Origin: a virus
Lineage: Duplodnaviria > Heunggongvirae > Uroviricota > Caudoviricetes
Length of the DNA: 32,850 nucleotides
Virus record (IMG/VR): IMGVR_UViG_2548876941_000012
Strand: one strand, 5' to 3'
How positions within the stretch are numbered: the stretch's first letter is position 1; every line of letters begins with the position of its first letter. Position numbers and translations under genes: made by a program. Below are positions 4,951-12,808 of the stretch, one piece after another. Below the pieces are notes generated by a model. The model did not search any database and had not been told where the DNA came from. It saw only the letters and a program-made list of their open reading frames with translations.

Positions 4951-5661
4951 ATGAAAGATAAATACATTGCCAAAATCAAAAAACTGTTACGCCTTGCCAA
5001 AGGAACATCAAGCCCGGAAGAAGCCGCTAACGCTATTGCAAAAGCCCAGGCTTATATGCGCCAGCATGGTATCAGCGAAAACGACGCGGAATTGTTCGAC
5101 ATTCAGGAAGCTGCCAGCGCGGGTGCGCCGAGTGACGCCAGTACGCCGCCGCGTTATATGCACATCCTGTGTGACCTAGTCTGTAAAGCCTTCGGTGTCG
5201 AGTGTTACATCTCCGGCGAATACCGGGCTTCTGGTTCACTTAAACGTTACGTGCGTTTTTATGGTCCTGACAGCCGCCCGGAAATCGCGGCTTACGCGTT
5301 TGATGTGCTTTCCCGTCAGATGATGGCAGAGCGCAAGAAATATCAGGATAAACACTGCAAACGTTGTGGTCCGTCCACGCGGGTAGCCCGTGGCGACCAG
5401 TTCTGCGAAGGCTGGGTCTTTGGTGCCCGTGATGTCATTGCGGTGTATGACGTCTCCCCGGAAGAAAAAAGCCGCCTTGAGCTTTACAGAAAGAACCTGC
5501 ACAGCACTAAGGGACTGCGCGACGGGGATATGCGCACAGCTAAAGCGTGTCGGGGTGCAGAGTTTGCCGCTACTGCCGGTTTTATCGCCGGGAAGAACGC
5601 CAGGCTGCATCAGGGGGTTAATGGTCAGAGCAACAGACCGCTGGCACTGGGGAGGGTGTAA
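4951..5661 (+). CDS. DUF2786-like phage protein
   Basis: 236 aa. N-terminus KIKKLLRLAKGTSSPEEAANAIAKAQAYMRQHGI matches my memory of the DUF2786 N-terminal helix pair; Cys-containing C-terminal domain. Confidence 0.65.
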   Translation: MKDKYIAKIKKLLRLAKGTSSPEEAANAIAKAQAYMRQHGISENDAELFDIQEAASAGAPSDASTPPRYMHILCDLVCKAFGVECYISGEYRASGSLKRYVRFYGPDSRPEIAAYAFDVLSRQMMAERKKYQDKHCKRCGPSTRVARGDQFCEGWVFGARDVIAVYDVSPEEKSRLELYRKNLHSTKGLRDGDMRTAKACRGAEFAATAGFIAGKNARLHQGVNGQSNRPLALGRV

Positions 5662-5663
5662 CG

Positions 5664-5891
5664 ATGGCTTTTAAACTTCTTAGTGTTACCGAAGCAATAT
5701 ACCAGCCGCCCGGAGAACGCCACGAATACAGGATGAATGACGGTAGCGCGGTGGTTGAGTTCCCCGGATATCCGGGGGCTTCCCGGTGGCGGTTCTATGA
5801 CAGTGTGGGACGTCGGATTATTAAAAGAACCGTGCACAACAATATGAAGGCTGCCGTAGAACGTCATAAGAGAAGGTTTAACTGCAAATGA
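5664..5891 (+). CDS. hypothetical protein
   Basis: 75-aa ORF; SD GGAGGG upstream; starts 3 nt after the preceding stop. Confidence 0.5.
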   Translation: MAFKLLSVTEAIYQPPGERHEYRMNDGSAVVEFPGYPGASRWRFYDSVGRRIIKRTVHNNMKAAVERHKRRFNCK

Positions 5892-6118
5892 AAATTGAAT
5901 TTTATGACCATGGGGTCACCGCAACTATCACTATTTCTTGTTGGTTCTGGGAGTTCCACCGTTACTTCAGAGTTGTAGATGCTGCGCTGTTTGTTGCACC
6001 GGGAGCGTTACATCACAGTGGAATCGGTATTGTTATGAACACTGTCATCAGCGGTAAAACGGTCCCGATGTTGCGGGCGTTTAAAGTGGCAAAACAGGAG
6101 GCTGGCAATGGTCATTGA
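5888..6118 (+). CDS. hypothetical protein
   Basis: 76-aa ORF with ATGA stop/start overlap with the upstream gene. Confidence 0.45.
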   Translation: MKIEFYDHGVTATITISCWFWEFHRYFRVVDAALFVAPGALHHSGIGIVMNTVISGKTVPMLRAFKVAKQEAGNGH

Positions 6119-6422
6119 TAAAACGATAACGATAGATGTAGCCATGAATACAGGTCTGGCGCTTATCGGTTATGGCTATATCACTTTTATGTCATTCAGG
6201 TGGTTGATTTCTTCGCTCTTTAAGCAGCGTGAAAAACATCGTTGTAAAGACAAGCGCGCGAAGGCGCTAAATGCGTTTAATGACGCTTTTGATATTGACC
6301 ATATGCAACAGGGCGACCCCGCACGCGTAATTACCCGGGGAGATATTGTAATTCTTGTGTACCGGAATGAAAAAAATGAACAGGAGACAACCAGTGAGTC
6401 AGCAAACCAGAATAAGCGATAA
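6108..6422 (+). CDS. hypothetical membrane-associated protein
   Basis: 104 aa; SD CAGGAGG upstream; hydrophobic segment GLALIGYGYITFMSFRWLISSLF followed by a basic/acidic tail. Confidence 0.5.
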   Translation: MVIDKTITIDVAMNTGLALIGYGYITFMSFRWLISSLFKQREKHRCKDKRAKALNAFNDAFDIDHMQQGDPARVITRGDIVILVYRNEKNEQETTSESANQNKR

Positions 6423-6558
6423 GAGTCTGACCAGACTGATTGCCGATGCGGACAAGGTGCTGGAGCGGAACTCCCCCGTTGCCGATGAGGAATGGTGGCA
6501 GGATTTCCGGGCTGCAATGCTGGAACTTCAGGAACGTCGTCGGGAGGTGTTGAAGTGA
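6394..6558 (+). CDS. hypothetical small protein
   Basis: Track ORF 6355-6558 (TTG start). Best-supported start is GTG at 6394 with SD GGAG 7 nt upstream, giving 54 aa; start is uncertain. Confidence 0.4.
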   Translation: MSQQTRISDKSLTRLIADADKVLERNSPVADEEWWQDFRAAMLELQERRREVLK

Positions 6559-6824
6559 GTGAATTAAAGTGTCGAATTAATGGCAATCAGATAGAACCGT
6601 GTGCGGTACTGGCAAAAGCACTCGAATATGGAAATCCAGCCTTTAAGAGTAAAGGCATATTTATCCCGGAACGCGTGAATATAAACACCGGCGAGCCAGG
6701 CTTAGACATTGCTCAAATTCACTCCGGCCAATATGTCGGTCGTGGTGTTGCCATGTGTTTTTGCCCGTTCTGTGGTGAAAGTCTGAAAACATGGAAAAAG
6801 GAGGCAACCAGTGAGCGAGATTAA
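6555..6824 (+). CDS. hypothetical protein with Cys motif
   Basis: Track ORF 6492-6824. GTG at 6555 has SD GGAGG upstream and overlaps the upstream stop; contains CFCPFCG and an earlier KC...PC pair, suggestive of a small zinc-ribbon. Confidence 0.5.
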   Translation: MSELKCRINGNQIEPCAVLAKALEYGNPAFKSKGIFIPERVNINTGEPGLDIAQIHSGQYVGRGVAMCFCPFCGESLKTWKKEATSERD

Positions 6825-7308
6825 CTATCAGGCACTGCGTGAGGTGGCAGAGGCCGCGAAGGGGGATACGACGTGGCAGAACCTACAGGCTTTTCATGCT
6901 GCGGCTACGCCGGAGGTTGTGCAGGCGTTGCTGGATGAAAACGAAAGACTGTGTCGCGATCTGATAGCTCGTAATGGTGAGATTGAAGGGCTTCGGGAGT
7001 GGGCAGAAGAACTGGAGGCACGGGAGGTGGCTTTGCCAGTAGCGTCATGCATTGTTGAAGATGGATGCATGTGTGTTGATGGGTTCAGTGAGTATGTAGG
7101 TCACTCGCTACCTGATGGAATGCATGAGCTTTATGCTGCCCCGCCAGCGTCGGTAGTGCCGGAAGGACTAGTTAAAGCAGTGCGTTTCTATGAACAGGTA
7201 AAGTGTGAGAATCCGCCAGTCGAAACCGGAGCATGGAAAGACGCGGTTGACTGGGTACTCAACGAGGCTTGCCAGGCTGTAAATATTGACGCCAAAGGAG
7301 GTGCGTAA
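6811..7308 (+). CDS. acidic protein with Ead/Ea22-like N-terminal region (tentative)
   Basis: 165 aa, GTG start with SD GGAGG. N-terminus NYQALREVAEAAKGDTTWQ and ATPEVVQALLDENERL resembles, from memory, the N-terminal region of lambdoid Ea22/Ead-family proteins. Confidence 0.5.
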   Translation: MSEINYQALREVAEAAKGDTTWQNLQAFHAAATPEVVQALLDENERLCRDLIARNGEIEGLREWAEELEAREVALPVASCIVEDGCMCVDGFSEYVGHSLPDGMHELYAAPPASVVPEGLVKAVRFYEQVKCENPPVETGAWKDAVDWVLNEACQAVNIDAKGGA

Positions 7309-7478
7309 TGCGTGTAGCGTTTATCGGTTTATTACCATACCCGACTCGTTTTTGGGCTTCTGCGCTAATTGCAAAGCCACATGCCCTGATGGCTGACAGC
7401 ATCATCCCGGCACCAAAGCGCCATACCGGTATTGCTGCTGCACGACGCGAAGCAAAGAAACGCAGGAGAGCAAAATGA
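7308..7478 (+). CDS. small hydrophobic/basic peptide (56 aa), below the ORF-track size cut-off
   Basis: ATG at 7308 overlaps the upstream stop (TAATG), strong SD AGGAGG 7 nt upstream; stop overlaps the next start (ATGATG). Hydrophobic N-half (AFIGLLPYPTRFWASALIA) and Arg/Lys-rich C-terminus. Confidence 0.4.
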   Translation: MRVAFIGLLPYPTRFWASALIAKPHALMADSIIPAPKRHTGIAAARREAKKRRRAK

Positions 7479-7663
7479 TGAAAAACCGTAAGGCAAGACT
7501 GCTGATAGCAAAGCCAGGGCAACTTATCCGTATCTCAAATCGACTTGTTGTTCGCTATAGATATCTTGGTTTTAGGGAGTGGTCCTCTATTCGTTTTTAC
7601 GGTGTCTGGAGAAACAGAAGCGCGACACAAAACCGCTGGAAGAATCACACTAACGCAAAGTAA
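7475..7663 (+). CDS. small basic protein, function unknown
   Basis: 62-aa ORF, SD AGGAGA upstream; Arg/Lys-rich. Confidence 0.45.
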   Translation: MMKNRKARLLIAKPGQLIRISNRLVVRYRYLGFREWSSIRFYGVWRNRSATQNRWKNHTNAK

Positions 7664-7680
7664 TTAAATAATAACCAATA

Positions 7681-7708
7681 GCAGACCAAAAAGTATTTTT
7701 TGGTCTGC
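7681..7708. promoter_or_regulatory. perfect 12-bp palindrome (GCAGACCAAAAA gtat TTTTTGGTCTGC) with adjacent TTTTGGTC repeat
   Basis: Read directly; lies in a 67-nt intergenic gap inside the early region. Stem contains its own A/T tract, so it could be a bidirectional terminator or a protein-binding site. Confidence 0.4.
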
Positions 7709-7730
7709 CAAAAGTGATGTTTTGGTCATT

Positions 7731-8009
7731 ATGAAGATTGAACAAATCGGAATGGCAGCTTTCAGGCAACAGGCTGAAAGCGGTGGCGTGGATGAGTTCG
7801 TCGTGCAGCGGTTCGGTGGTGTGTATCATCTATTCGCTGTGAATCGCCGCGCCGGGGTGTCCTATTTTCTACAGGAACGTCGTGGCGATTACAAGACATG
7901 GCTGTCTCTTGACCGTGCCGCTGCGTTCTTGTCAGGGATTGGCGTTTCACGTTTTACCGTGCGTTTTGAGGATAACAAACATGCTGAAAAAGATGATCGG
8001 GGCCATTAA
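7731..8009 (+). CDS. hypothetical protein
   Basis: Track ORF 7722-8009 (TTG); first ATG at 7731. 92 aa; overlaps the next gene by 29 nt. Confidence 0.5.
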   Translation: MKIEQIGMAAFRQQAESGGVDEFVVQRFGGVYHLFAVNRRAGVSYFLQERRGDYKTWLSLDRAAAFLSGIGVSRFTVRFEDNKHAEKDDRGH

Positions 8010-8379
8010 AGCCGGTCAGGCGTATCTGGGGTGGGATGATGCCCTTTATCGCCAGACGCTGGCCCGCCTGACCGGTAAAACCAGCACCACACGCTGCAAT
8101 CTCGATGAACTGCGCATCATCCGGGAATACATGCACGAACAGGGATTCCCGCGCAAGGCACCCGCTGGTAAAGGTCGCCGCCCTCGTGTTGCAATGAGCA
8201 GAAAATCAGTATTATCCAAAATTGAAGCGTTGCTGGCTGATGCCGGTCGTTCCTGGGCGTATGCAGAAGGACTGGCATCTCACATGTATAAGCAACATGT
8301 GATCGAATGGCTGACGGATGAACAGCTTTTTGGAGTGATGGTGGCGCTGGTTAAAGATTCAAGAAGGAGAAATCAATGA
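7981..8379 (+). CDS. GemA-like protein (DUF1018-like, tentative)
   Basis: ATG at 7981 within the larger track ORF 7882-8379; 132 aa; position just upstream of the Mor/C-family gene as gemA is in Mu; sequence features (AYLGWDDALYRQTLARLTGKTS) recalled as GemA-like. Confidence 0.55.
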   Translation: MLKKMIGAIKAGQAYLGWDDALYRQTLARLTGKTSTTRCNLDELRIIREYMHEQGFPRKAPAGKGRRPRVAMSRKSVLSKIEALLADAGRSWAYAEGLASHMYKQHVIEWLTDEQLFGVMVALVKDSRRRNQ

Positions 8380-8852
8380 TGAAAAAATGGTTGTTTTGTT
8401 TAGTAGGGGTTATTTTCTCTTGTTCTGTGCTAGCACAGACAGAGGAACAGGCGCAAAAGGAACTGAAACGTTATCAGGATATGAAGCCATTGGCTGAACA
8501 GATGCTTCGGGAAAGTGGAAAACTTTATTACGCTATGCCAGAAGCTGCATCGCAGTATCAGCAGGGAAATATTGAAGAGTGGAAGAATATCAAAAAAGGA
8601 CTAAAACAACTGGATGAACAGGCCAGTAAACTGGGGGACGACCCGCTTGATCCTGTGTATGGTTCCTGCATAAAAATGAAAAACCAGCTACAGGATTACT
8701 GGTCTAACGTTATCAGGGATGACAGGCAGTTTCTGGAGCGTTCAAGAAATCAGTTTAAAGAATATCGTATGGATTGTTTTGATTCGTTTGTTTTTGGTAA
8801 AGAGCAAATAGAATCAAGAAAAGGCCTGGTTATTCTAGACCTGACTAAATAA
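8376..8852 (+). CDS. secreted or periplasmic protein of unknown function (moron candidate)
   Basis: 158 aa with N-terminal signal peptide (MMKKWLFCLVGVIFSCSVLA, likely cleavage after VLA); visibly AT-richer than flanking phage genes; followed by a strong intrinsic terminator. Confidence 0.7.
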   Translation: MMKKWLFCLVGVIFSCSVLAQTEEQAQKELKRYQDMKPLAEQMLRESGKLYYAMPEAASQYQQGNIEEWKNIKKGLKQLDEQASKLGDDPLDPVYGSCIKMKNQLQDYWSNVIRDDRQFLERSRNQFKEYRMDCFDSFVFGKEQIESRKGLVILDLTK

Positions 8853-8862
8853 GACTTAGTTT

Positions 8863-8890
8863 AGCCCCTGCCATGCAGGGGCTTTTTTTG
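8863..8890 (+). terminator. rho-independent terminator
   Basis: AGCCCCTGC cat GCAGGGGCT stem-loop followed by TTTTTTT. Confidence 0.8.
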
Positions 8891-8894
8891 TGGT

Positions 8895-8923
8895 CTGTAC
8901 AGGCGATCATGTATGGCTATAAT
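8895..8923 (+). promoter_or_regulatory. promoter-like element with consensus -10 and weak -35
   Basis: TATAAT at 8918-8923; the hexamer 17 nt upstream is CTGTAC (poor match to TTGACA); about 30 nt upstream of the Mor/C-family gene. Confidence 0.45.
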
Positions 8924-8952
8924 AACAGTAAGTTACTACCGGAGACGCCATC

Positions 8953-9420
8953 ATGCAGACCTTCAGTGAAACAGATCTTCGCGATGCGCAGGCACTGCTG
9001 CCCGATTCCGTGCAGCAACTGATTAGCGTGATTGGCTTCCCCGCCCTGACCCGGTTGATTCGTTCTTTTGGTGGCGTGACGTTAAGCGGTAAAACCGGCG
9101 TACACGCCGAACGCACCGGCGGTGTCCATGCCCTGTTACATGACGTGCTCACCGAAGACGAAATCAACAAACTGATCCGCTTTCTTGGCGGTGCTCCGTT
9201 TTACATTCCCCGTTGCGATCATGCGTTACGTGCCCTGCGTAACACCCGTTTTATGGCTGATTTACAGCAGCATGTAAAAGACGGATGCTCACACCGGCAG
9301 GCGCTGGCACTGCTCTGTCCCCGTTACGGCATTTCAGACCGGTACGCATGGCAGCTGATACACCGACGACAAAAACAGACTTCGCTGAAAAGCCCCACCC
9401 AGGTGGGGCTTTTTGATTAA
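8953..9420 (+). CDS. Mor/C-family transcriptional activator
   Basis: 155 aa; LGGAPFYIPR motif and C-terminal HTH-like LCPRYGISDRYAWQLIHRR resemble Mu Mor/C proteins; position between early region and lysis genes. Confidence 0.7.
   Translation: MQTFSETDLRDAQALLPDSVQQLISVIGFPALTRLIRSFGGVTLSGKTGVHAERTGGVHALLHDVLTEDEINKLIRFLGGAPFYIPRCDHALRALRNTRFMADLQQHVKDGCSHRQALALLCPRYGISDRYAWQLIHRRQKQTSLKSPTQVGLFD
9391..9415 (+). terminator. rho-independent terminator overlapping the 3' end of the Mor/C-family gene
   Basis: AGCCCCAC ccag GTGGGGCT stem-loop followed by TTTTT, ending 3 nt before the stop codon. Confidence 0.7.
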
Positions 9421-9446
9421 TGGGCCTCAGAAAAAAGGAGACACTT

Positions 9447-9725
9447 ATGACCAACTATATGGCACTTGGCGAGTATACGGCCTACTCAGAGCAGGCCCGG
9501 GATGCTGCCGGACGTCGCTTTGCTTATATGAAAAATTTGGCCAGTCAGTTAAACCGAATGGCCGAACAACCGGATATGGTTGTTCAGGAAGAAGCGTTGC
9601 AGTGTGCCATTGCTGACATCATCGCCAGCGAAAACGAGATGCGCGCAGCGATGGAAAAGGCGAACGCCTCTGCTCCGCTTTGTAATAAACCTCTTATTAC
9701 GCCGGATTCTCTTTCCCGCTTCTGA
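9447..9725 (+). CDS. hypothetical protein
   Basis: Track ORF 9420-9725; ATG at 9447 has SD AGGAGA 6 nt upstream, giving 92 aa. Confidence 0.5.
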   Translation: MTNYMALGEYTAYSEQARDAAGRRFAYMKNLASQLNRMAEQPDMVVQEEALQCAIADIIASENEMRAAMEKANASAPLCNKPLITPDSLSRF

Positions 9726-9730
9726 TTTAT

Positions 9731-9750
9731 CACCCCGCCGCCGCGGGGTG
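9731..9750 (+). promoter_or_regulatory. GC-rich hairpin (CACCCCGC cgcc GCGGGGTG)
   Basis: Perfect 8-bp stem, 4-nt loop, no U-tract; its 3' arm overlaps the start of the dyad motif at 9748. Confidence 0.45.
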
Positions 9751-9775
9751 CTGAACTCCCCCAGCAGTACCCACC
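9748..9775 (+). promoter_or_regulatory. candidate late-promoter activator site, copy 1 (GTGCTGAACTCCCCCAGCAGTACCCACC)
   Basis: One of three copies of a GTGCTGAAC-NCCC motif found upstream of late operons (others at 17903 and 29821); about 130 nt upstream of the lysis cassette start. Confidence 0.5.
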
Positions 9776-9907
9776 ACACCAGACCGTTTACCCTGTCCAC
9801 TCAGACCACAAGGCACCTTAAGGGATAGCGCCCTGCAAAAGGCTTTTGTGCCTTTGACAGGGTGTTATTTACGGGCCGTCAGTGGCTCAGATTTACAGGA
9901 GAAACTC

Positions 9908-10300
9908 ATGTCTGAACCCTTATCAGGCGGCGGAGCTGTGGCAGTCACCATCGGTGGTGCCAGTGTGTTTGGCCTTCTCACCAATACCGATTTCGGGGTC
10001 GTGGTGGGCGCGTTTGCCGGGGCGCTTTTTGTTGTCACTCAGCAGAAAGAAATCCCGGTATGGCGAATGGCTATTCACCTGCTCGTCGCGTTTGTGGTTG
10101 GCGTTCTGGGGGCTGGCGTGGCTGCGTCACTGATGCAGTGGCTGACCCACTACAACGACAAACCGCTTGATGCATTGTGTGCGGTCGGTGTCTCGGCGTT
10201 ATCCATCAAGATACTGACCTTTCTTTATCAACAGGAAATTTCATCGCTGTTCGGCCTGTTTTCCAGACTGCGCGGCGGAGGGGGTGGAAATGGAAAGTAG
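9908..10300 (+). CDS. holin-like membrane protein
   Basis: Track ORF 9848-10300; ATG at 9908 with SD AGGAG; 130 aa with three hydrophobic helices; first gene of the lysis cassette. Confidence 0.6.
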   Translation: MSEPLSGGGAVAVTIGGASVFGLLTNTDFGVVVGAFAGALFVVTQQKEIPVWRMAIHLLVAFVVGVLGAGVAASLMQWLTHYNDKPLDALCAVGVSALSIKILTFLYQQEISSLFGLFSRLRGGGGGNGK

Positions 10301-10586
10301 CCTTGCCGGTATCGTGAACGTCTGGCTGTGTCTCGCCATTGTGCTGGGGTTGTTTGTGTATCGCCGCCACGGTGCGGCGCATAAACCGATGATTACCTGG
10401 CTGGCGTACTGGCTGATGCTCGGCTACATCATCATCCCGTTCCGCTGGCTGTCCGGTACATACACGCACTCCAGCTGGCTGGTTGTGGCGCTGAATCTGG
10501 TTTTCTGTGCGCTTATCGTGTGGGCGCACGGGAATTTGTCAAAAATCCTTTCGTTACTGAGGCATCCACATGAAATCAAAAGATGA
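10290..10586 (+). CDS. membrane protein (holin/antiholin-like)
   Basis: Track ORF 10284-10586 (GTG); ATG at 10290 with SD GGAGGGGG upstream; 98 aa with multiple hydrophobic helices; overlaps flanking genes. Confidence 0.5.
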   Translation: MESSLAGIVNVWLCLAIVLGLFVYRRHGAAHKPMITWLAYWLMLGYIIIPFRWLSGTYTHSSWLVVALNLVFCALIVWAHGNLSKILSLLRHPHEIKR

Positions 10587-11115
10587 CATTTTTGATGAAG
10601 TCCTGGGCAAAGAAGGCGGTTACGTCAATCACCCGGACGATAAGGGCGGTCCGACCAAATGGGGCATTACGGAAAAAGTCGCCCGCGCCCACGGATATCG
10701 TGGCGATATGCGCGATTTAACCCGCGAACAGGCGCTGGACATCCTTGAAGCCGATTACTGGTATGGCCCGCGATTTGACCAGATCGCCGCATTATCCCCT
10801 GATATTGCCGCAGAGCTGTGTGATACCGGTGTGAATATGGGGCCAACCGTGGCGTCCAGAATGCTTCAGCGCTGGCTGAATGTGTTCAATCTGCGCGGCA
10901 GGCTGTACCCGGATATGGACGCAGACGGACGCATCGGGCCTCGTACCATCAGTGCATTGCGCGCCTTCCTGAATAATCGCGGTCAGGACGGTGAACGGGT
11001 GATGCTGACGGCCCTGAACTGTACGCAGGGGGACCGCTATCTGGAACTGGCGGAGAAACGCGAGGCTAACGAATCGTTTGTTTATGGCTGGCTGAAGGAG
11101 CGCGTGGCGATATGA
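10570..11115 (+). CDS. endolysin (GH108-type lysozyme with peptidoglycan-binding domain)
   Basis: 181 aa; N-terminal KEGGYVNHPDDKGGPTKWGIT matches the GH108 signature as I recall it; no N-terminal signal or SAR segment. Confidence 0.8.
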   Translation: MKSKDDIFDEVLGKEGGYVNHPDDKGGPTKWGITEKVARAHGYRGDMRDLTREQALDILEADYWYGPRFDQIAALSPDIAAELCDTGVNMGPTVASRMLQRWLNVFNLRGRLYPDMDADGRIGPRTISALRAFLNNRGQDGERVMLTALNCTQGDRYLELAEKREANESFVYGWLKERVAI

Positions 11116-12067: not shown

Positions 12068-12808
12068 ATGCAAAAACAGATTATTGGTAACGCAACGTTG
12101 TATTGCGGTGATGTTCTTGATGTGCTGCCGGCGTTATCCGAACGTTTTGATGCCGTCATTACCGACCCGCCTTACAGCAGTGGTGGCACACATAAATCAG
12201 ACCGCAGCATGGCCCCTTCGGACAAGTATGTCGGTCACACCCAGTATGCCGAGTTCAGCGGGGATAACCGCGACCAGCGCAGTTGGGCATACTGGAGCAC
12301 CCTGTGGATGTCCGGGGCTGCCCGCCTTGTGCGCCCCGGTGGTTATGTCATGGTGTTCAGTGACTGGCGACAGCTTCCCACCATGACCGACGTTTTTCAG
12401 GCCGGTGGTGTGCTGTGGCGTGGTCTTGTTGTCTGGGATAAAACGCAGGCTTCCCGTGCGCCACACACCGGCTATTTCCGGCATCAGGCCGAGTATGTGG
12501 TCTGGGGCAGCAACGGAAAACTCGACAAATGTCCGCACGGTGGCCCGTTCCCGGGTGTGATTACGCAGCGTGTTGTCCCGTCCGAAAAACTGCACATGAC
12601 CGCAAAGCCGGTTCAGCTGATGGCCGAGCTGGTTAAACCGCTGGCACCGGATGCGCACGTTCTCGATCCGTTTATGGGAAGCGGCACCACCGCCATCCCG
12701 GTACTTGCCCGTGGCGGACGGTTTACCGGCATTGAAATGACTAACCAGTATTTTGATATCGCCTGCGCACGTATCGAAAAAGCGCAGGCAGAAGCAGCGC
12801 AGGTGTGA
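12068..12808 (+). CDS. DNA methyltransferase, beta-class (N6-adenine or N4-cytosine)
   Basis: 246 aa; catalytic motif IV DPPY near the N-terminus (AVITDPPYSSGG), SAM-binding motif I near the C-terminus (VLDPFMGSGTT); this motif order is the beta-class arrangement. No adjacent restriction gene. Confidence 0.85.
   Translation: MQKQIIGNATLYCGDVLDVLPALSERFDAVITDPPYSSGGTHKSDRSMAPSDKYVGHTQYAEFSGDNRDQRSWAYWSTLWMSGAARLVRPGGYVMVFSDWRQLPTMTDVFQAGGVLWRGLVVWDKTQASRAPHTGYFRHQAEYVVWGSNGKLDKCPHGGPFPGVITQRVVPSEKLHMTAKPVQLMAELVKPLAPDAHVLDPFMGSGTTAIPVLARGGRFTGIEMTNQYFDIACARIEKAQAEAAQV

Follow-up and report, generated by a model that had tools for sequence, protein, structure and literature searches.

The window analysed here, a 32,850-nucleotide stretch of DNA (IMG/VR virus record IMGVR_UViG_2548876941_000012), shares 99.9% identity with the Mu-like prophage of enteropathogenic Escherichia coli (EPEC) O127:H6 strain E2348/69. 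The gene under study, referred to below as X, is the last in this prophage's early operon, between a gemA-type gene and a gene for a Mor/C-family activator, and very probably specifies a small exported protein carried as exchangeable cargo in a precisely bounded slot of the phage backbone. The features of this junction are as follows:

7981–8379, plus strand: gemA/gp16-family gene, the upstream operon partner of X (Pfam GemA, E 2.9e-18; RefSeq 'gp16 family protein')
8364–8369, plus strand: Shine-Dalgarno sequence AAGGAG within the 3' end of gemA, 6 nt before the ATG at 8376 and 9 nt before the ATG at 8379
8376–8852, plus strand: cargo gene X, with an ATG start and a 158 amino acid (aa) precursor (RefSeq WP_000976762.1, 'hypothetical protein')
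8376–8435, plus strand: part of X coding for the signal peptide (residues 1–20), with a predicted signal peptidase I site between VLA and Q, after Ala20
8436–8849, plus strand: mature domain of X, 138 aa, a predicted four-helix bundle (AlphaFold2)
8863–8890, plus strand: intrinsic terminator of the early operon, a backbone element, with the stem AGCCCCTGC/GCAGGGGCT followed by T7
8896–8923, plus strand: sigma-70-like promoter of the activator gene, TGTACA-16-TATAAT (10 of 12)
8953–9420, plus strand: Mor/C-family activator gene (Pfam Mor, phrog_836)

The original prediction had drawn a 158-aa open reading frame (ORF) at 8376–8852. It is present there, and no other ORF of 40 aa or more exists over 8380–8850 in any frame. 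Its placement between a GemA-like gene and the single Mor/C-family gene was confirmed by the Pfam matches to GemA and Mor and by tblastn with five Mor/C proteins, which revealed no second such locus in the window. The proposal that X is AT-richer than its flanks also held in GC windowing. The GC content of X is 0.400 versus a window mean of 0.541, segments of 477 nt with GC this low make up 0.04% of all those in the 32.85 kb, and the GC minimum of the entire window (0.398) begins at 8346, on X. Since the GC content at third codon positions (GC3) is 0.40 in X versus 0.53–0.57 in gemA, Mor, MuA and MuB, there is a break in codon choice that goes beyond amino-acid content. At a Xenorhabdus locus (L027) X is likewise AT-rich, with a GC content of 0.33–0.39 versus 0.52–0.56 for its phage.

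Pairwise between alleles, the ratio of nonsynonymous to synonymous divergence (dN/dS) of X is 0.11–0.15, which indicates purifying selection and a genuine protein. A spurious or decaying ORF within an AT-rich spacer might be suspected from the label of X, which is only 'hypothetical' in every source, and from one frameshifted copy (P0010). Selection and conservation effectively refute this, and it is given almost no weight: the low dN/dS holds between alleles whose synonymous divergence is saturated, members with as little as 25% identity keep the length, signal peptide and cysteine pair, the structure prediction is confident, and an identical protein is found on about 1000 contigs.

The N-terminus of X (MMKKWLFCLVGVIFSCSVLA, followed after the predicted cleavage site by QTEEQ) contains two lysines, a hydrophobic core with a top 12-residue Kyte-Doolittle mean of 2.54, and V-x-A at positions −3/−1. 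Signal peptides were judged from charge, hydropathy and the −3/−1 residues, and by this measure the same architecture is present in 16 of the 16 X-family members examined: two K/R, a best 12-residue hydropathy of 2.0–2.7, A/V/S at −3 and A/S at −1, the −3/−1 residues of one member (P0013) being offset by one residue. The N-terminal signal peptide of the original prediction is thus borne out, with canonical Sec features in all of them, as is the hydrophilic, Lys/Glu/Gln-rich mature part, of which K, E, Q, N, D and R constitute 49%. The IFSC sequence of X matches the PROSITE lipobox pattern. A lipoprotein reading was rejected because the cysteine of this motif (Cys16) is not conserved: P0003 and P0005 have Phe at this position, and the distant members lack it. 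The prediction for X is therefore a soluble substrate of signal peptidase I rather than a lipoprotein.

AlphaFold2 modelling of the mature protein, using 14 sequences, gave a predicted local distance difference test score (pLDDT) of 91.8 and a predicted template modelling score (pTM) of 0.83. The model possesses four helices, at mature residues 3–42, 47–66, 76–94 and 97–127. Five residues of the precursor are invariant in the family (K4, K37, C98, W109 and C134) and three are near-invariant (G64, W69 and G87). The invariant cysteines, C78 and C114 in mature numbering, each lie about 18 residues from the turn between helices 3 and 4 in the model, one on either side; we infer that they stand side by side in the helix 3/4 hairpin, in an arrangement compatible with a disulfide, as would be expected in the periplasm. 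Foldseek comparison of the model with PDB and BFVD revealed nothing at E < 0.05, the matches being to generic four-helix bundles only.

The slot occupied by X was surveyed in 19 IMG/VR loci, collected via the Mor gene, and in several loci of E. coli, Yersinia and Salmonella, while counts were made over all 58 complete E. coli genomes that carry the gemA-terminator junction. Among the latter the slot is found in the following states:

State A: X, in two deeply divergent allele groups; 23 of 58 genomes
State B: an unrelated 112-aa signal-peptide protein with one weak Sel1-like repeat (phrog_5882); 12 of 58 genomes
State C/D: a third family of 167–174 aa, with a signal peptide and two cysteines (phrog_19473); 5 of 58 genomes, all with cargo D
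Empty: 119 bp from the gemA stop to the Mor start; 18 of 58 genomes, assigned from fitting spans

The IMG/VR loci show the same slot states, and in seven of them the passage from gemA to the terminator/promoter/Mor junction is only 119 bp. All three cargo families are small exported proteins. Synteny accords in this respect with the original prediction of an extra gene at this site, related prophages having the slot empty or filled with unrelated exported proteins, and the phage can do without X.

When the window is compared with the prophage of E. coli 08-00022, identity is 97–100% over gemA and the first ~85 nt of X, 40–77% from about 8460 to 8880, and again 90–100% from the T-run on. Cargo C (L025, 3399–4001) has its first 13 codons (MMKKWLFCLVGVI) in common with X (8376–8414 in the window), followed by an unrelated mature domain, which places recombination joints inside the signal-peptide coding region; the sequence coding for the signal peptide is reused as a homology arm. 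The synonymous divergence (dS) of X is at least 1.0 or saturated, versus 0.09–0.40 for gemA and Mor when the same pairs of genomes are compared, so the X alleles long predate their present backbones and have been recombined in. Fast in-situ evolution or diversifying selection of X was considered and rejected, as dN/dS is 0.11–0.15 and the excess divergence is also synonymous. The slot is very probably a recombination cassette, with a left arm formed by the 3' end of gemA and the first signal-peptide codons and a right arm formed by the terminator T-run and the activator promoter, through which near-identical backbones exchange old divergent X alleles, two other exported-protein families, or nothing.

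The original prediction had also assigned to X a strong terminator at 8863–8890. The hairpin and its T7 are real: the stem (8863–8883) has 9 bp, 7 of them G-C pairs, and folding gave −20 kcal/mol with z = −4.2, none of 200 shuffles being as stable. The assignment to X did not stand, the hairpin and T-run being kept in seven empty-slot relatives and under all other slot states. In empty-slot prophages the hairpin CAGCCCCTGCC.TGCAGGGGC is followed by T6–7 and, downstream, by a TGTACA-16-TATAAT promoter. A terminator belonging to the cargo was rejected on these grounds; present as it is where cargo is lacking, it marks the end of the early operon and is part of the phage backbone, with X as cargo set upstream. 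A second terminator allele (AACCTCCGC/GCGGAGGTT), seen under A and B cargos, keeps the pairing with other sequence, and this fits selection on RNA structure.

The promoter at 8896–8923 is near-unchanged in every slot state. The activator of the window shows 54% identity to the post-terminator activator of L027 versus 36% to the mor-position gene of that locus, which identifies it as the C-position ortholog and the mor-position gene as the one that is missing. A scan of the window Mor protein against the genome contigs gave no relative. Mu Pm has no −35 and is Mor-dependent; the promoter of the window is near-consensus, in a phage that has no mor-position gene. Just past the X stop and ahead of the hairpin, CCACTGAACCCCTTCAACC (L027, 7469–7490) and CCACTGAACCCTCTCACC (L029, 7454–7475) are conserved between two otherwise divergent Mu-like prophages, and may constitute a regulatory site, for example for a Mor-type activator. 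An Rfam scan of 5500–10500 returned sub-threshold chance matches only.

The TGA stop of gemA (8377–8379) overlaps the ATG of X (8376) in a 4-nt ATGA, and a consensus scan revealed no sigma-70-like promoter on the plus strand over 7700–8376. In the curated Mu record gemA (8233–8784) and mor (8781–9170) overlap by 4 nt, and a terminator hairpin (9179–9200) lies about 10 nt past mor, inside the Mor-dependent middle promoter Pm (9163–9233). The claim that X sits where Mu carries mor (gemB, gp17) is therefore upheld: both are the second cistron after gemA, with the same ATGA overlap, and in both cases the hairpin of the early terminator comes within about 10 nt, with a promoter for the next regulatory gene behind it. 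The resemblance is one of layout and not of homology. X is exported, whereas mor specifies a DNA-binding activator, and Pfam Mor (PF08765) does not match X at E <= 1 but does match its neighbour at 8953–9420. The prophages of Xenorhabdus carry both genes, arranged as mor-X-terminator-C. Mu encodes just four proteins with membrane-spanning segments, none of them from the early operon (Chamblee et al., PMC9239132), and X thus adds something that Mu lacks. As a joint description of its anatomy, X is very probably a Sec-exported, soluble periplasmic four-helix bundle specified by the last cistron of the early operon.

Further upstream, a 250-bp non-coding AT-rich gap (7479–7730) precedes the ORF at 7731–8009, gemA and X. 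It contains a perfect palindrome, AGCAGACCAAAAA-GTA-TTTTTTGGTCTGC, at about 7679–7710 and a weak promoter-like site at 7644–7672, and it matches the relative place of the 'semi-early promoter' annotated before gemA in the Mu record. This gap could be an internal promoter or operator of the gem-type operon.

The X family consists of about 20 cluster representatives. A word-indexed search of 5.8 billion proteins yielded 10 clusters, an exhaustive phmmer search of 1.84 billion representatives gave 11 matches, one of them spurious, and a profile search brought in the X proteins of Xenorhabdus. Distant homologs show 25–47% identity, and in every source the members are named 'hypothetical' or 'exported hypothetical'. 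No match for X was found in Pfam, PHROGs, NCBIfam or PADLOC, the last of which also gave none for distant X members or for cargos B, C and D; a profile search of the PDB sequences revealed no relative, and neither megablast nor tblastn, run with X and three distant members, returned anything from 50,697 GenBank phages. In the literature no description was found of X or of the early region of the E2348/69 Mu-like prophage.

Every context recovered for X is a Mu-like prophage. The order GemA-X-Mor is found in E. coli, Yersinia, Salmonella and further loci; in Xenorhabdus it is GemA-HI_1489_N-Mor-X, followed by a hairpin with U-run and a second activator, and on a Logan contig GemA-Mor-X-terminator-endolysin. 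In L029 the endolysin gene comes next after X, across the terminator. The rule shared by these arrangements is that X is the predicted final early gene, directly ahead of the early terminator. The idea of X as a one-off acquisition fails at this point, remote homologs occupying the same last-early-gene position in divergent Mu-like prophages.

X shares with phage morons (Juhala et al. 2000; Cumby et al. 2012) the character of an extra low-GC gene between genes that are adjacent in related phages. Accessory-gene hotspots are known in Pseudomonas Mu-like phages (Cazares et al. 2014, PMC4378225), and, as in these hotspots and in morons, X is dispensable and swapped by recombination at conserved flanks. 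It differs from morons in having neither a promoter of its own, as judged by the consensus scan, nor a terminator of its own, and in being coupled to gemA. Divergent homologs moreover hold the same position in distant Mu-like prophages, which makes X a long-standing, lineage-associated accessory gene rather than a recent pick-up. Of the moron in the original prediction there survives a non-core cargo of distinct composition; the self-contained unit does not, no promoter having been found and the terminator belonging to the backbone. In its behaviour X resembles a known kind, the accessory or 'moron-type' phage gene of a recombination hotspot, and not an autonomous moron.

Small Sec-exported periplasmic phage proteins that stop an incoming phage include Spackle (Sp) of T4, which is made early, and Sim of P1. 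The functional logic proposed for X is the same, with early expression deduced from its operon, although no sequence or structural relationship between these proteins and X was detected. Cor of phages phi80, N15 and HK022 and Llp of T5 are small exported lipoproteins that act on the cell envelope by blocking the receptor FhuA. X is also a small exported phage protein, but both of these are lipoproteins, and the lipobox-like Cys16 of X is not conserved. Judged by sequence, X is neither a Mor/C protein nor a lipoprotein exclusion factor, and it falls in no catalogued defence family.

It is proposed that production of X would begin with the firing of the early operon, some low-level expression in lysogens being possible. 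X is very probably translated from the ribosome-binding site inside gemA, exported through Sec and cut by signal peptidase I after Ala20, its mRNA ending at the phage's own early-operon terminator. Once in the periplasm, it would block the entry of a superinfecting phage, binding either to a component of the envelope or to a tail or injection protein of the incoming phage. As an explanation of X as a whole, anatomy plus function, this is considered the best available, with a probability of roughly 0.4; the function taken by itself, a periplasmic superinfection or entry block serving phage fitness, is argued by analogy and is a tentative assignment, put slightly lower. It is favoured, indirectly, by the pattern of presence/absence and allele swapping, which is typical of conflict genes, by the small exported nature of the proteins in all three cargo families, by the low-level Pe transcription reported for Mu lysogens (PMC3820752), by the early timing that the operon position suggests, and by the existence of periplasmic exclusion proteins as an established kind. 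X is furthermore accompanied by four endolysin types (GH108, M15, GH24 and Amidase_2), which makes a partner of one lysis enzyme unlikely and again favours a superinfection block. Several points weigh on the other side. PADLOC, Pfam, PHROGs, NCBIfam and PDB gave no sequence or fold link from X to known exclusion proteins, and the fold searches gave generic four-helix bundles only; the dN/dS of about 0.13 overall suggests no arms race over the protein as a whole; X is missing from many sister prophages; and the periplasmic location and the disulfide are themselves predictions.

X might instead be a lysogenic-conversion or host-benefit factor, expressed from the prophage and altering a property of the host envelope without being aimed at phages; resistance to serum, lysozyme, colicins or type VI effectors, and colonisation, would be examples. 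An exported product of atypical composition in the prophage of a pathogen is in keeping with such a role. So is the behaviour of Mu lysogens, in which low-level Pe transcription is reported to cross the semi-essential region and gem activity to be seen 'even in a lysogen' (PMC3820752), as well as the semi-early promoter before gemA in the Mu record, at whose relative position the window has its non-coding gap. Yet no promoter was detected beside X, which is translationally coupled to a lytic-cycle operon, its carriers span commensal, animal, soil and insect-pathogen (Xenorhabdus) hosts with no tie to pathotype, and it matches no virulence or immunity family; a benefit to the host is considered unlikely. 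A role in the lytic cycle, in which a periplasmic X prepares or protects the envelope during phage growth (delaying premature lysis, tuning lysis timing, or inactivating receptors to spare progeny from debris), would suit an early-expressed gene, as its operon position suggests X to be, that is the last of its operon and stands directly before the late activator and lysis cassette, or, in L029, directly before the endolysin gene across the terminator. The four endolysin types found with X are unrelated and its holins differ, however, and 18 of the 58 sister prophages do without X, whose place unrelated proteins can take. The Mu membrane proteins gp19 and gp20, encoded near the equivalent junction, are unnecessary for lysis (PMC9239132), which also speaks against a helper of this sort, and we regard it as still less likely than a host benefit.

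A further idea is that of a sensor-domain mimic, a free periplasmic bundle that would imitate the sensor domain of a histidine kinase or chemoreceptor, titrate its ligand or partner lipoprotein, and thereby rewire the signalling of the host during infection. X differs from the periplasmic sensor bundles (4HB_MCP, NarX/NarQ, TorS, QseE) in being free-standing, without flanking transmembrane helices or a cytoplasmic module. Sequence identity to them is 4–9%, no member of the X family has a Pfam match to 4HB_MCP or a sensor family, and talin rods and de novo designed bundles reach equal scores, the likeness being generic to the fold; sensor mimicry is considered very improbable. What probability remains on the function of X is left to something else. 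A bolder proposal is that X founds a new family of periplasmic four-helix bundles of transposable (Mu-like) phages, expressed from the last part of the early operon and acting by a new mechanism (a block to DNA entry of competing phages in the periplasm, or sensor mimicry), and that the slot is a 'periplasmic effector' hotspot in which the three cargo families would be alternative weapons of one kind; this is doubtful, and falls between the host-benefit and the lytic-helper readings in probability.

Other parts of the prophage are variable as well. Upstream of the gemA block, gene content over 6800–7730, which includes an Ead/Ea22-like gene and small ORFs, varies among sister prophages (compared with L002, 1373–2932, and L003, 2369–2896) and makes up a second variable region of the early operon. 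A DNA methyltransferase gene (12068–12808) lies between DUF1804 and terL in the window and is missing there in a Salmonella relative (L007); in L032 a DNA methyltransferase gene is found between the holin and lysozyme genes. The DNA methyltransferase gene looks like another putative mobile cargo of this phage group. The endolysin module is swapped between near-identical backbones, the window having GH108 and PG_binding_3 (10570–11115), E. coli 08-00022 an M15 metallopeptidase (L003, 5769–6146), and more distant relatives a GH24 lysozyme or an Amidase_2 endolysin.

Mu is a paradigm phage, and the accessory content at the end of its type of early operon has hardly been studied outside Pseudomonas. 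What is described here is a precisely bounded slot holding only small exported proteins, of three unrelated families, or nothing, in near-identical backbones, and such cargos are frequent in E. coli, Salmonella, Yersinia and Xenorhabdus. For annotation, the lesson is that a strong terminator after a gene need not signify a moron that brought it. Isogenic prophages differing in cargo alone amount to a natural experiment on what such phages need in the periplasm early in infection, be it exclusion, receptor masking or host manipulation. X is a reasonable candidate lead for a phage-exclusion or envelope factor; a phenotype, if found, would annotate about 1000 genes now listed as 'hypothetical' and could bring to light a new mechanism of exclusion.

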